Assembly: GCA_951406725.2 (NCBI GenBank)
Contig: OX597826.1
Span: 28,768,001 to 28,832,000, forward strand
Reading direction: 5' to 3'
DNA length: 64,000 nucleotides
DNA from: Octopus vulgaris
Lineage: Eukaryota
Under the pieces are notes generated by a model. It did no database searches. It had not been told where the DNA came from and saw only the letters and a program-made list of their open reading frames with translations. Position numbers and translations under genes: made by a program. Shown here in pieces: positions 23,303-37,426 of the stretch. Positions within the stretch are counted from its first letter, which is position 1; each line of letters begins with the position of its first letter.

Positions 23303-23339
<37 letters not shown>

Positions 23340-23341
<2 letters not shown>

Positions 23342-24120
23342 TAAGAAAGTTGGTATGTGAAAGCACATATAGAAAATATATAGGAAATAGTAAAAAGTGA
23401 AAAAACTACAGAAGGCTTGTTTTAAAAGGTTAAAAAATATATATTTGAGTCAATATGCCTGAAGAATGTTATACATTTTTTTCATACAATGACATAGTAT
23501 AGAAGAAATGACCGGTTTCAGGTTCAGCTTTTCAAATTTCTTAAAACGTTATGTTTACGTTGAGCGGTGATCTAGATAATAAGTGATTTCTTCCGGTGTA
23601 AGGGAGATAATCGCTTAAAATTATTTGCCTTTCTTTTGGATTGAGTTTCTCTGTATAAGTATGTTGGAATGGTTAAGTTTGGGCTTGTATTTTTCAATGA
23701 AGAATGTTTCCTTGTTTAGTCTAATTTGTGTTGGTGTTCCGATAGCACATTGGTAGAATGGAAAGATTAGAAATTGTGGTAGTAGTTGCTTTGCGCATTT
23801 CTCAATGTGCTCACTAAAGGGTATCATTCTGAATTCTGGGAATGCAATCTGTTGTCGATGCAGTGTGCATCTACGTCTGAGTGATAGTCCCGTGGATCCC
23901 ACGTAGTCTTGGTGGCAGCCCGAGCATTTTATGACATAAATTATGTTTTCAGAGGCACAAGTAAAATTAGATTTGATCTTGAATTTCTGTCCCTCTTTGA
24001 AGAGGAATTCTGATCCTTCTAGCAGGTTTGGACATGTTGCACAGTTCGGTCTACCACATTTTTTTACTTTTGCATCCGTAATTTCAGAAAACAATTTTGC
24101 CTTTGTGAGAATCTTTTTAA
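23340..24120 (-). mobile_element. PLE 3' fragment (GIY-YIG domain ORF 23621-24120 plus 3' UTR)
   Basis: KKCGRPNCATC...IIYVIKCSGCHQDYVGSTG...EKYKPKLN. The 3' UTR ends in (TA)n. Homologous to 36487-37385. Confidence 0.92.
23503..23542 (-). ncRNA. Hammerhead ribozyme, U3-A8 core variant (stem II decayed)
   Basis: Minus strand aagaaat-TTGAAAA-gctgaacct-GAAA-ccgg-TC-atttctt. Confidence 0.6.
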
Positions 24121-24398
24121 ACACCCTAATTGACAGACATTACCCAGCTCAACTCATAGAGGATGGGATCAGACGTGCAACAGAAATCAACATAGAAACT
24201 TTAAGAAAAGTTCAACACAACAACACACCTTCCCCGAAAATACTACCTTACATATCCACATACAACCCCAGAAACAAAGAAGCCTTCACCATCATCACCC
24301 AGAATTTACCAATACTTCATAAGGACCCCAAATTAAAGGAAATTCTAAACATACACCAAATCATTAAAAGCTACAAACAACCTAAATCACTTAAAAAG
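24121..24398 (+). mobile_element. Inverted upstream segment of the same PLE (RT thumb/linker)
   Basis: LIDRHYPAQLIEDGIRRA...PYISTYNPRN...[10 protein letters not shown]. This immediately precedes KKILTKAK in the uninverted copy near 36550. Confidence 0.88.
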
Positions 24399-24449
24399 AC
24401 GAAATACCGCAAAGGCTTTCGTCAAATTACGTGGGCATATAATAATGTT

Positions 24450-31224: not shown

Positions 31225-31803
31225 GGTGTGAGAGGATGGTTAAGTCATAGTTAGTTTAGATGTGATACAAAATAGAGAGTAAGGTGGAGGAAAGAAAATA
31301 GATGCAAGATGTGTATGGATATTGGATTTGTAAATCCATTTTTAGGCATAATGGTATATATGCAATATTCCAATAACCTATGAGTAAAGTCCAAAAGTCC
31401 AACAGAGTTTTAAATGGTTCCTTCCAAATACAGAGTTTATAAGCAATGTAATATTCCCTTATATATATATATACATATATATGTATGTATATGTATGTGT
31501 GTGTATATATATATATATACATATATGCATACACACACACACATATATATATATACATACATACATATATACGTATATATGTATATATATGTATGTATAT
31601 ATATATATATATATTATATAATTAGGGCTTAGTAAAATATATATATATATATATATATATGCTAAAAACAATGCTAACAAGAAATTGAAAAGTAGCATAC
31701 ATCATACCAAAAACAAGACAGAAAACATAACGAAACCAAGTAAAGTACCACAACCAAAACGCAAAATTCATCAAGCAAACATCAACAGGAATATAAATCA
31801 TAA

Positions 31804-34131
31804 CCAGAAAAAAATCCATTTTTTTACGTCAGGACAACAAACACCGGAGAAAGAAAAAATCCAAGAGGAAACATACCCCAAACAACTGAACGTATAGATC
31901 CTAAAATAATTAATTTATCAAAAAGAGATCTTGACAATGATGAAATCCAACTTCTGTCAAAAGGACTGAAATTCACACCTACACCAACAGCCAACCACCA
32001 AGAATTAAAGGAGGATATCCAAAAATTCTGTCGAAAATTACGACTTGTAGAATTCTTCGCTAACAAAAGTAATGAGATTGATGAATCCCTAGTAAGGAAT
32101 AAATCAAATTTCACCCCACCAAAAGGAAGAAATAACTACCTTGACCAATACATTGATATCCTGTCTAAATTTCCCCTTAGACGCAATACCAATGTTAGGC
32201 CAAACATTAGCAAATCAGAGTTGTCTGCATGTAAACGTATACAAAACGATCAAACAATAATAATTAAACAAGCAGATAAAGGTGGTGCAACTGTTATTAT
32301 GGATACCGAATACTATAAGGATTTGGTTGAAGACCAACTGAAGGATACAACCTTCTATTGTGAAATACCCGCAAATATAGACCACCACATCATGAAAAAG
32401 ATCAACAACCTGATTTCAACACACCACAACTCACTTACGGATAATGAAAAAGACTACATCACCAATTTTGAACCAAAACCCAGCAACTTCTACGGCTTAC
32501 CAAAAATACACAAATCAAAAAACATTCAACAGGCAGTAAAAGAACAAGAAAGTGAGTACATAAAATTATTACATCCAAAAGACCTAAAACTTAGACCTAT
32601 TATAGCTGGTCCAGCATGCCCTACACACCGTCTAAGCAATTTTATTGACATTGTTTTGAAACCACTATGTACTTACATACCAAGTTTCATCAGGGATGAC
32701 ATCGACTTCCTGTCCCATCTTCCCAAAACAACAGAAACAAATTCAGTTTTGCTAAGTTTTGATGTGGTAAGCCTCTACACCAATATTCCACACGATTTAG
32801 GAATAAAGGCGATTAAATACTGGTTAGAAAAACATAGAGAAGTGATTCCCAGCAGATTCACAGTGCCATTTATATTAGACACAGTCAAACTTATTCTAGA
32901 AAATAACACATTCTTCTTCAATGGAAAGAATTACATCCAAATTAGAGGCACGGCGATGGGAACGAGGTTTGCTCCCGTTTACGCCAACTCTGTAATGGGA
33001 TACTTAGAAGAACAACTCTACCAAGAGGTGGAGGTAAACTATGGCACTGGATTTAGAAAGTATATTGAAAAGGCATGGAAGAGATACCTAGACGACTGTT
33101 TCATAATCTGGACAGAATCTCTAAATACTCTGGAAGAGTTCAATATCCTCCTGAACAACCTACACCCATCTCTCAAATTTACAAAGGAGATGAGTAGTAC
33201 CAAATTACCATTCCTGGATATAATGGTAATTAAAAAAGACACCACCATCACCACAGATATATACTATAAACACACAGACACACATCAATACCTAAATTTT
33301 AAGTCGTGCCATCCACCACATACAAAACGTAACATCCCATACTGCCTAGCCAGAAGAATTTGTACTATTGTAGAAGATGCAAATATCAGGAACAAACGCC
33401 TAATAGAACTAAGAGAATTTTTGCTCAAACAAAAATACCCATCTCTACTTATAGAAAATGGCATACAGCGGGCTATAAAAATACCTATACAACAACTTAG
33501 GACAACCCAAGGAAGAGGAAAACAAGAACAAGTCATACCATTCATAGTGACACACAACCCATGTCACCAGAATATCTTCAACATTGCCAAAGCAAACCTT
33601 CCAATCATTGCCCAAAGTAATGAATTAAAAGACATAATCAAGGATCGAGCTATGGTGCTTAGTAAAAGACAGCCTAAAAACTTGAAAACATTACTAACAA
33701 AGGCAAAATTTGACCTCAGCAACAAAGACCAAACATTCACGGTATCTAAATGCAATGATAGCCGATGTGGCACATGCCAATTCATACATACCGGTCAATA
33801 TATAAACACAAAAACCGGGAAAATATTCACAAACGCGAATATGAACTGCAAAAGCAGAAATTTAATTTACTGCATCAAATGCCCAAATTGTGAAGAAATA
33901 TATGTAGGTCAGACGGGAAACGCACTATTAGAACGCTCACGTGTACACCGGCAACAGATTAGAGACCCAGAGGTCCGTCAGATACCTTTGAGTAACCACC
34001 TAGCAACATGTGGTCGGAAAATATATATAATATTTCCATTCTACAAATTACACAGCCCAAGTGAAATCGAGAGGAAAATCAGAGAAAAGAATTTTATTGA
34101 TAAATTCGAACCCAAGCTAAATAAGCAATAA
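31804..34131 (+). CDS. Penelope-like retroelement polyprotein (RT + C-terminal GIY-YIG endonuclease), Neptune-like; frame open for 775 codons
   Basis: The frame is open from just after TAA at 31801-31803 and reads IINLSKRDL...LLSKGLKFTPTP before the track's TTG start at 32221. RT motifs: IIIKQADKGG, FYGLPKIHK, LRPII, SFDVVSLYTNIP, GTAMGTRFAP, RYLDD, LPFLDI. Cys linker KCNDSRCGTC. GIY-YIG: NLIYCIKCPNCEEIYVGQTG...KFEPKLN. No stops or frameshifts. Confidence 0.95.
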   Translation, partial: PEKNPFFYVRTTNTGERKNPRGNIPQTTERIDPKIINLSKRDLDNDEIQLLSKGLKFTPTPTANHQELKEDIQKFCRKLRLVEFFANKSNEIDESLVRNKSNFTPPKGRNNYLDQYIDILSKFPLRRNTNVRPNISKSELSACKRIQNDQTIIIKQADKGGATVIMDTEYYKDLVEDQLKDTTFYCEIPANIDHHIMKKINNLISTHHNSLTDNEKDYITNFEPKPSNFYGLPKIHKSKNIQQAVKEQESEYIKLLHPKDLKLRPIIAGPACPTHRLSNFIDIVLKPLCTYIPSFIRDDIDFLSHLPKTTETNSVLLSFDVVSLYTNIPHDLGIKAIKYWLEKHREVIPSRFTVPFILDTVKLILENNTFFFNGKNYIQIRGTAMGTRFAPVYANSVMGYLEEQLYQEVEVNYGTGFRKYIEKAWKRYLDDCFIIWTESLNTLEEFNILLNNLHPSLKFTKEMSSTKLPFLDIMVIKKDTTITTDIYYKHTDTHQYLNFKSCHPPHTKRNIPYCLARRICTIVEDANIRNKRLIELREFLLKQKYPSLLIENGIQRAIKIPIQQLRTTQGRGKQEQVIPFIVTHNPCHQNIFNIAKANLPIIAQSNELKDIIKDRAMVLSKRQPKNLKTLLTKAKFDLSNKDQTFTVSKCNDSRCGTCQFIHTGQYINTKTGKIFTNANMNCKSRNLIYCIKCPNCEEIYVGQTGNALLERSRVHRQQIRDPEVRQIPLSNHLATCGRKIYIIFPFYKLHSPSEIERKIREKNFIDKFEPKLNKQ

Positions 34132-34448
34132 TAATAATACTTAGAGGTATTACTTCCACTGCTACGACCATGACCACTAACAACAACAACAATACTAAAG
34201 GTGATCAAGACGAAGATAGCAGGAAAATTATCTTATTTAGGGTTAAAAGTTCTATTGCCACCACCATCACCACTAGCAACAATAATTAAGGTGCTGACAA
34301 TGATGATGATGACAATTGAAATATAAAAATATAAAAATCTCTGACAAAGGATATTTACAACATTTCTAAAAATAACCCAACAATTGCTGCTTCGGCCAGG
34401 GTCAAGATACAGGACTCTTGACCTGTCCAACAAAGCGTGATGCCTAAA

Positions 34449-34562
34449 CCAATCAGCTCAACCAACCAATCAGCTTAAGTAATTGAGTGATACTACACAC
34501 TGATTGGTCAGAATACAGTTTGCAAAACCTAGCACTCTGGAGCCTACCCAGCTGTATTTATA
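34449..34562 (+). promoter_or_regulatory. Putative pseudo-LTR Pol II promoter of the PLE
   Basis: AACCAATCAGCT occurs twice (CCAAT at 34449 and 34466), inverted ATTGG at 34503, and TATTTATA at 34555-34562, about 65 nt upstream of the hammerhead. Confidence 0.5.
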
Positions 34563-34625
34563 GCACAGAATCACTCATCTTGCTACAGTCAAAAATTGTG
34601 AAGCATGACTGTCAACACTACTACA

Positions 34626-34670
34626 TGAACCCGAAGATTGCAGAATTCAATGCATGAAAGTACTAGTTCA
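34626..34670 (+). ncRNA. Minimal type I hammerhead ribozyme (PLE 3' region)
   Basis: tgaac-CCGAAGA-t-tgca(gaattcaa)tgca-t-GAAA-gtac-TA-gttca. Stem I is tgaac/gttca and stem III is the palindrome AGTACT. Confidence 0.8.
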
Positions 34671-34849
34671 ATCAGAATGAATATTTAACATTCTACTATT
34701 TCATTTTATTTTATTCAATTATAATATATTATCTTATAATATATCATTATAAGATTGTAAATAAAACGTGAAAATCAGACAAGGTTGGAATTCTTTTTAT
34801 TAATATATTCTTCTATACACAATCACACACACCCATATATATATATATC

Positions 34850-34962
<113 letters not shown>

Positions 34963-36427: not shown

Positions 36428-36485
36428 ATATATATACATATATATATGTATATATATGTATGTATATGTATGTATATATGGTATA
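35430..36485. repeat. (GGT)/(GTA)n and (TA)n low-complexity field
   Basis: Read directly from the sequence. Confidence 0.93.
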
Positions 36486-36486
36486 A

Positions 36487-37385
36487 AAACCCAAAATTAA
36501 GGGAAATTCTAAACATACACCAAATCATTAAAAGCTACAAACAGCCTAAATCACTTAAAAAGATTCTCACAAAGGCAAAAATTGTCTTCTAAAATTACGG
36601 ATGCAAAAGTAAAAAAATGTGGTAGATCGAACTGTGCAACATGTCCTAACCTATTGGAAGGATCAGAATTCTTCTTTAAAGAAGGACAGAAATTTAAGAT
36701 CAAATCTAACTTTACTTGTGCCTCTGAAAACATAATTTATGTTATTAAATGCTCGGGCTGCCACCAAGACTACGTGGGTTCCACGGGACTATCACTCAGG
36801 CGCAGATGCACACTGCATCGACAACAGATTGCATTCCCAGAATATAGAATGATACCTTTTAGTGAGCACATTGAGAAATGCGCAAAGCAACTACTGCCAC
36901 AATTTTTAATCTTCCCATTTTACCAATGTGCTTTCGGATCATCAACACAAATGAGACTGAACAAGGAAACATTCTTCATTGAAAAGTACAAACCCAGACT
37001 CAACCATCCGAACATACTGACACAGAGAAATTAACAAGGAAATGGGAAAAAAATTTTTTAAGCGATTATCTCCCCTACACCGGAAAAAATCACTCACTAC
37101 CTCCCCTTATTTAGAAATCTCCTGGAAATAAAAACAACGATAAATCCATGCAATATAAACATAACGTCACAAGAAATTTGAAAAGCTACACGCGAAACCG
37201 GTAATTTCTTTAAAAATTTAAAAATTATGTCATTTTAAGGAAAGGAAAAAAATTTTTCCAATATTCTCCAGACATTTTGACACAAATATATATATCTTTT
37301 AACATTTAAGCCTTCTGTCGTTTTTTCACACTTTACTATTTTCTTATATATTCACCCACGTGCTTTACCAAACAAACTTTCTTAT
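36487..37385 (+). mobile_element. PLE 3' fragment (GIY-YIG, frameshift near 36580) in (TA)n
   Basis: ORF 36582-37034 is nearly identical in protein sequence to 23621-24120. Flanked by TA repeats. Confidence 0.92.
37171..37210 (+). ncRNA. Hammerhead ribozyme, U3-A8 core variant
   Basis: aagaaat-TTGAAAA-gc(tacac)gc-GAAA-ccgg-TA-atttctt. 7-bp stem I; stem III palindrome ACCGGT. Confidence 0.75.
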
Positions 37386-37426
37386 CTGTATATATATATA
37401 TATACTTATATATATGCATACATATA

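Follow-up and report, generated by a model that had tools for sequence, protein, structure and literature searches.

How a reverse transcriptase (RT) is made from a reading frame that has no start codon is the question raised by this locus. The window is the whole 64,000-nt stretch analysed, taken from contig OX597826.1 of the Octopus vulgaris assembly GCA_951406725.2. Within it a young Penelope-like element (PLE), truncated at its 5' end and inserted in (TA)n, occupies positions 31663 to 34854 of the forward strand. The RT frame (ORF2) is closed by a TAA at 31801-31803, as a previous reading made from the sequence alone had it, and is then open for 775 codons to 34131. That reading also found no in-frame ATG until about 32299, after the conserved INLS, KGLKF and DKG motifs (starting at 31909, 31960 and 32275). 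This is true of the window copy, where the ATG at 32299 is codon 166, but not of the family. In every one of the 29 other copies compared, codon 140 (32221) is an ATG, whereas the window copy has a private TTG there. This family ATG precedes DKG, yet is still 104 codons downstream of INLS and 87 downstream of KGLKF. The features of the element are as follows.

31663..31897, + strand: 3' end of ORF1, the last 78 of 430 codons, a basic disordered tail with the stop TAG at 31895-31897 (tblastn of residues 353-430 of P0001)
31801..31803, + strand: TAA, last stop of the RT frame preceding the overlap
31804..31897, + strand: overlap of ORF1 and ORF2, with ORF2 in the -1 frame
31807..31813, + strand: G_AAA_AAA, rejected as a shift site (non-canonical XXX)
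31819..31825, + strand: U_UUU_UUU, predicted -1 shift site, in register and kept in register among relatives (as U_UUU_UUA in the majority of them and in older copies)
31831..31832, + strand: AG resembling a 3' splice site, behind the T run (11/14 pyrimidines upstream, no good donor in the needed phase)
31804..34131, + strand: ORF2, 775 codons, comprising an N-terminal INLS/GLKF/DKG region, RT, linker and C-terminal GIY-YIG
~32671-33129, + strand: RT domain (Pfam RVT_1, E 2.3e-6, below the curated cut-off)
33751-33777, + strand: CX4CX2C linker between RT and endonuclease
33862-34122, + strand: C-terminal GIY-YIG endonuclease (Pfam E 2.7e-5, above the cut-off)
34321..34854, + strand: 3' pseudo-LTR (pLTR), of which full copies have a second at the 5' end
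34625..34670, + strand: type-I hammerhead-ribozyme-like motif in the pLTR (motif search and fold)

Over 31663-34808 the window copy is 99.8% identical to the full copy L033. Complete units are ~4.8 kb in length with two pLTRs, are found in tandem (L043) and inverted (L033, L042) arrangements, and have variable 5' ends. The search of the 2.8-Gb genome for copies gave 456 candidates, of which 40 were scored, and the pattern of the junction has 193 exact matches (a family of ~190 copies). In the full copies L010 and L033 ORF1 begins with ATG and has 430 codons. A structure model of its product (mean pLDDT 62, eight sequences) has long helices within residues 11-241, and is disordered after residue 246 with a basic tail. 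ORF1 matches no Pfam family and no PDB fold at E <= 0.001, and its atlas hits are all under 0.9.

The element has a PLE-type RT with GxKF and DKG, a GIY-YIG domain, pLTRs, 5' truncation and tandem or inverted copies, all of which are traits of endonuclease-bearing (EN+) PLEs. It departs from the canonical form in having two ORFs in -1 overlap in place of one, and is thus a two-ORF variant. The presence of GIY-YIG sets it apart from Athena and Coprina. The linker is of the CX2-5CxxC zinc finger type of Neptune, and its distance to the GIY motif is Neptune-like rather than Nematis-like when compared by eye with Supplementary Fig. S2 of PMC8557442. The hammerhead-like motif comprises helix I, a CCGAAGA core, a 4-bp helix II, GAAA and a palindromic loop III, and was matched by eye to the description in PMC4209133; the Rfam search gave no hammerhead match, only repeat-driven hits. 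On the CX4CX2C linker and the hammerhead-like motif the element fits a Neptune-like EN+ PLE, the accompanying tree being one of fetched loci without named references.

The frame upstream of ORF2 is open over 31622-31897 and reads CAT TTT TTT ACG at 31817-31828, placing T_TTT_TTT in the register for a -1 shift. The sequence-only reading had described this correctly, and the upstream frame is now seen to be the end of the ATG-started, 430-codon ORF1. Within the overlap no other canonical XXX YYY Z heptamer is in register, five further ones being out of register. Taken alone this is weak evidence, because the 91-nt stretch is A/T-rich and 15% of ORF1 stretches of the same size in the element hold such a heptamer; the weight rests on conservation. 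G_AAA_AAA, which had been offered as a second option, does not hold up. Although aligned with the codons, it does not conform to XXX YYY Z, all four older copies (selected by a T6A pattern) read G AGA AAA, and ORF1 homologues have RR or EK at that place.

Conservation of the junction was examined in relatives found by an RT-alignment scan of metagenome and genome collections, the matches being probably host DNA in microbial assemblies; viral contigs gave no relatives. Sixty-eight loci have the N-terminal motif and 400 nt upstream, and 50 are left when 18 redundant ones are removed. Among these a long upstream ORF has ORF2 in the -1 frame in 15 and in the +1 frame in one, 18 are single-frame and 16 are unclear. 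An in-register heptamer is found within the overlap in 14 of the 15 loci split in -1 (two of the 15 come from the window genome), the exception being L115. Eleven are U_UUU_UUN, two U_UUA_AAC and one G_GGU_UUU. Windows of the same length from the bodies of ORF1 lead to an expectation of 1.6, and none of a million draws reached 14, with the reservation that the loci are related and hence not independent.

In an RT tree of 35 rows, which includes fetched loci only and excludes L074 (tandem copies give an over-long span), the window family falls in a clade of nine rows (support 100/98) with the site present in all nine. A second split clade of five rows (100/100) has an ORF1 unrelated to that of the window family, and the single-frame Neptune-like and Poseidon-like rows are placed elsewhere. 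Compared with the N-terminal regions of single-frame PLEs, in a set of 37, ORF1 gives nothing significant, the lowest E being 0.005. Three more families in the window genome share the layout with U_UUU_UUA, and their ORF2 is ~40-55% identical where compared; the pattern used to find them required T6A but not register, and 27 of the 30 loci are in register.

The proteins carry the same signature. ORF2 has 440 homologues at E <= 1e-100. The 120 of these that are listed are 517-803 aa in length, with called starts that are scattered and often inside conserved motifs, and none contains a match to ORF1 (lengths up to 1357 aa were searched). Clustered at 50%, the ORF1 homologues from a profile search number at least 1113. 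None of the best 150 exceeds 706 aa, and two of the 150 (P0264 and P0135) continue into ORF2 sequence; longer fused proteins with ORF1 were sought and not found, which is weak evidence. FL or FF occurs within the last 45 residues of 85 of 102 full-tail ORF1 homologues, compared with 5 of 102 in the preceding 45 residues as control, and in 83 of the 85 the residue before it is codable by a codon ending in U. FL/FF in the ORF1 tail is the probable protein trace of a U_UUU_UUN site. In P0001, P0003, P0004 and P0006 the last 25 residues are conserved with a tail length of 23, while the 150 residues before them do not align. Such conservation past the shift site may reflect an RNA element, or else a role for the peptide itself.

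An ATG-started ORF1 with a start-less ORF2 in the -1 frame is the majority state, and the heptamer is in register across divergent families. It is therefore likely (probability roughly 0.85) that programmed -1 ribosomal frameshifting at U_UUU_UUU yields the RT-endonuclease fused to ORF1, as the sequence-only reading had proposed. The majority of ribosomes would terminate at the ORF1 TAG to give the 430-aa helical and basic protein, and a minority would slip at Phe-Phe to give a fusion of ~1175 aa. Termination against slippage would then set a ratio like that of gag to gag-pol.

Splicing is a serious rival, because T6-AG also has the shape of an acceptor. An intron ending at AG 31831-31832 would join ORF1, or a leader supplying an ATG, to ORF2, with the T run as its polypyrimidine tract. 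Eleven of the 14 nucleotides before CAG are pyrimidines, the exon would begin in ORF2 phase 2, T6-AG is in identical phase in 8 of 15 relatives, and introns are retained by PLEs according to PMC8557442. Yet a GT donor of >=5 bits in the needed phase (generic matrix) is found in none of 16 loci, and the strongest one at the window locus, of 4.8 bits, has phase 1 and would lead back into ORF1. In 6 of 15 relatives the first AG is >=25 nt from the start of the heptamer, and at three split loci the heptamer is U_UUA_AAC or G_GGU_UUU, each of them a shift site but no pyrimidine tract. Contigs from three of four runs (four studies, taken as RNA by guess) span the junction with neither an indel nor a joint, bearing in mind that contigs drop rare forms; in run X7 ORF1 and the junction are uncovered. 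With neither a donor in the needed phase nor a splice joint at the junction, the spliced leader that the earlier reading had held against its own proposal was not found, and we regard splicing as unlikely. Elsewhere in ORF2, a low-depth contig of run X1 (6 of ~480) skips 96 nt (L033:4659-4756, ~32043-32140 in the window) with CT..AC ends, and reads as a GT..AG intron of the antisense strand.

Alternatively ORF2 might be translated separately, as are the ORF2s of LINEs, by reinitiation or internal initiation at the ATG of codon 140 or at an ATA or ATT before INLS. The ATG at 32221 is present in most copies, ATA or ATT codons occur at 31873, 31894, 31906 and 31909, and one family of the window genome (L231, L233, L240, L244 and others) has an in-frame ATG before INLS, 12 codons behind its in-register heptamer. 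From its sequence that family would possibly have two routes into ORF2. However, a start at codon 140 drops both INLS and GLKF, which are kept in homologues, and the scatter of called starts among the 120 listed homologues, many within conserved motifs, also speaks against a separate start. Separate initiation moreover leaves unexplained both the bias towards -1 (15 to 1) and the heptamer in register. It is quite improbable as the source of the enzyme.

The frames could also be fused at the level of the nucleic acid, by slippage of a polymerase on A7/T7, or rare single-frame copies might supply the enzyme. The alignment of other genomic copies, which the earlier reading had proposed as a check, bears upon this directly. 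The A7/T7 junction is kept in 95 of the 100 copies listed (of 193), with +1 in five and -1 in none; the initial 29 copies, being the best matches, form a biased sample, and the open-gap pattern behind the 100-copy count is fairer. Both ORFs are intact and split in 11 of 19 fetched stretches, and 6 of 104 copies have a single frame (1109-1214 codons). One continuous frame in other copies had been named as evidence against a shift, and it occurs only in this sporadic form. The fusing indels (A8, T8, +G, -2 and -17) are private, and the haplotypes that carry them differ. At the overlap's second A run, 3 copies of 100 have +1 and 4 have -1 (a control A run in ORF2 changes in 1 of 100), which is ordinary homopolymer slippage, and slippage has no need of codon register. 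That fused copies are favoured was ruled out, since indels run both ways and the fused copies share no private changes. Thus the propagating form is the split one, and the fused copies are sporadic slippage or error. The copy counts exclude polymerase slippage and artefact as main routes, and fusion in the nucleic acid is very improbable. An assembly error, or decay of a single copy, would be natural at a homopolymer but is scarcely credible here, since 193 copies match with 95 of 100 listed identical, contigs from three other studies agree, and divergent families have the same layout.

Older copies (L079-L082 and L230) have U_UUU_UUA where the young high-copy form has U_UUU_UUU, a single-base change in the site that did not cost the element its activity. 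All four runs contain a joint from L033:6930 to 2666, from the 3' end back to the start of the pLTR. Such a joint is expected from the terminal repeat and tandem copies, and a circular RNA would look alike. The window family is held by other organisms too (runs X15-X20).

If ribosomes do shift at the U run, the question of what stimulates them follows. The sequence-only reading saw no strong hairpin, and this is borne out. No strong structure is found downstream of the window site (z -1.44), and across 16 sites the 3' fold has z between -1.45 and +1.31, with no stimulatory hairpin. A simple pseudoknot scan of the same number of sites beats all shuffles at two, neither of them in the window family, and gives no consistent signal, and four other sites of the window genome fold with -2 to -5 kcal/mol. 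The fold and pseudoknot scans are simple, and could miss a complex or protein-bound structure. The conserved SG..PE tail hinted at a stem of TCAGG with CCGGA downstream of the site, but this stem is unstable and is absent from a related family. Thus, of the classical features of a -1 frameshift, the in-register X_XXY_YYZ and the conservation of site and frame are present, and the 3' structure 5-9 nt downstream was not found by these scans. Since no 3' structure was found, the shift would rest upon the U run together with a further stimulator, for which a terminating ribosome is a speculative candidate.

In none of 88 homologues do fewer than 10 residues separate the Leu/Phe codon from the ORF1 stop, where ~56% would be expected from the spacing of stops in that frame. 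The separation is exactly 10 in 24 of the 88 (~4% expected), and the tails are only 10% identical. On the tree the 10-codon state requires 13 changes compared with 21 when shuffled, and being clustered is partly inherited. Among the DNA sites the distance from site to stop is exactly 30 nt in 5 of 16, one of which is from the clade with the unrelated ORF1. In the window family it is 23 codons, in other families of the same genome 20, 20 and 23, and in the two U_UUA_AAC loci 0. Footprints of disomes are ~60 nt in the available part of PMC12086091, and by that measure 10 codons correspond to the length of one ribosome. A possible reading, though less likely than not, is that a large clade of EN+ PLEs shifts by -1 without RNA structure. 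The stop would be kept one ribosome length or more behind the site, the ribosome terminating there would act as a roadblock, and the one trailing it would queue on the U run and slip. The roadblock is speculative; the distances of 23, 20 and 0 codons speak against it, and it fits the window family, with its 23, least well. If true, the stimulator of the frameshift would consist of the spacing of a stop codon alone.

An ORF1 followed by a frameshift with a pseudoknot is the layout of Athena and the Terminons. Canonical EN+ PLEs are single-ORF in the abstract of Craig et al. 2021 (PMC8557442), in agreement with the contrast drawn by the sequence-only reading. That contrast is weakened by the Fig. 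1 legends of the paper and of its preprint (bioRxiv 10.1101/2021.04.23.441226), in which an ORF1 of PLEs is 'separated by a frameshift with a pseudoknot'; the preprint legend sets this frameshift beside the Athena/Coprina layout. In so far as PMC8557442 is available, the element resembles canonical Neptune in its RT with DKG, C-terminal GIY-YIG, CX2-5CxxC linker, pLTRs, tandem and inverted copies, (TA)n target and hammerhead-like motif, and differs in a 430-aa ORF1 that overlaps ORF2 in -1 with a conserved shift site. The Neptune of killifish has, in contrast to it, two non-overlapping ATG-called ORFs, and the word frameshift is absent from the available part of PMC12602865. The element may also resemble the Athena/Coprina type, in which a coiled-coil ORF1 precedes the RT with a frameshift at the junction; here ORF1 is modelled as long helices with a disordered basic tail, and the frameshift is a predicted one. 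Unlike these, which have no endonuclease, are telomeric and have a pseudoknot, it has GIY-YIG and is dispersed, and the scan found no pseudoknot.

A similar logic is found in retroviral and LTR gag-pol, for example U_UUU_UUA of HIV-1 (PMC5009743, in part), where the heptamer is of the same class and a structural ORF lies upstream of an enzyme ORF in -1; the window element is by contrast non-LTR and non-viral, with no 3' stem-loop or pseudoknot found. Penelope is unmentioned in the first 300,000 of the 449,034 characters of PMC5009743. In SARS-CoV-2 the stop lies five codons away, and is proposed in the available part of PMC8168617 to allow refolding of the pseudoknot, whereas here the floor and the peak are at 10 and no structure was found. 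The literature searched describes no frameshift site in an EN+ PLE; the Arkhipova papers of 2006, 2007 and 2017 and Repbase/Dfam may describe one. The feature is thus real and its mechanism of a known kind, undescribed for the EN+ clade in the literature found, with a prior mention for Neptune possible.

The gene model of a widespread group of retrotransposons changes as a result. Annotations place the start within the enzyme and overlook ORF1, a family of at least 1113 clusters without a Pfam match, and rebuilding an active element or purifying the RT requires the fusion form. The loci also form a ready-made set of eukaryotic -1 shift sites that lack evident RNA structure, and the 10-codon floor between shift site and stop opens the model of queued ribosomes to a direct test, in which a single stop codon is shifted.

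A second young PLE family (unit ~4.0 kb) is present in the window as fragments at 36483-37393 (+) and 23307-24399 (both strands). In its full copies (L074-L076) ORF1 codes for 451 aa and ORF2, which is start-less too, has 811 codons, with U_UUU_UUA in register. In the second split clade (L121, L122, L131 and L146) ORF1 reaches 844 aa and is unrelated to that of the window. A GDS motif in the ORF1 of L146 is presumably reminiscent of SGNH/GDSL esterases; Pfam gives no match for L122 and L131. Animal PLE sequences also lie inside many bacterial genome assemblies (L166-L224), most likely as host contamination, and several ORF2 homologues carry the names of symbiont proteins.
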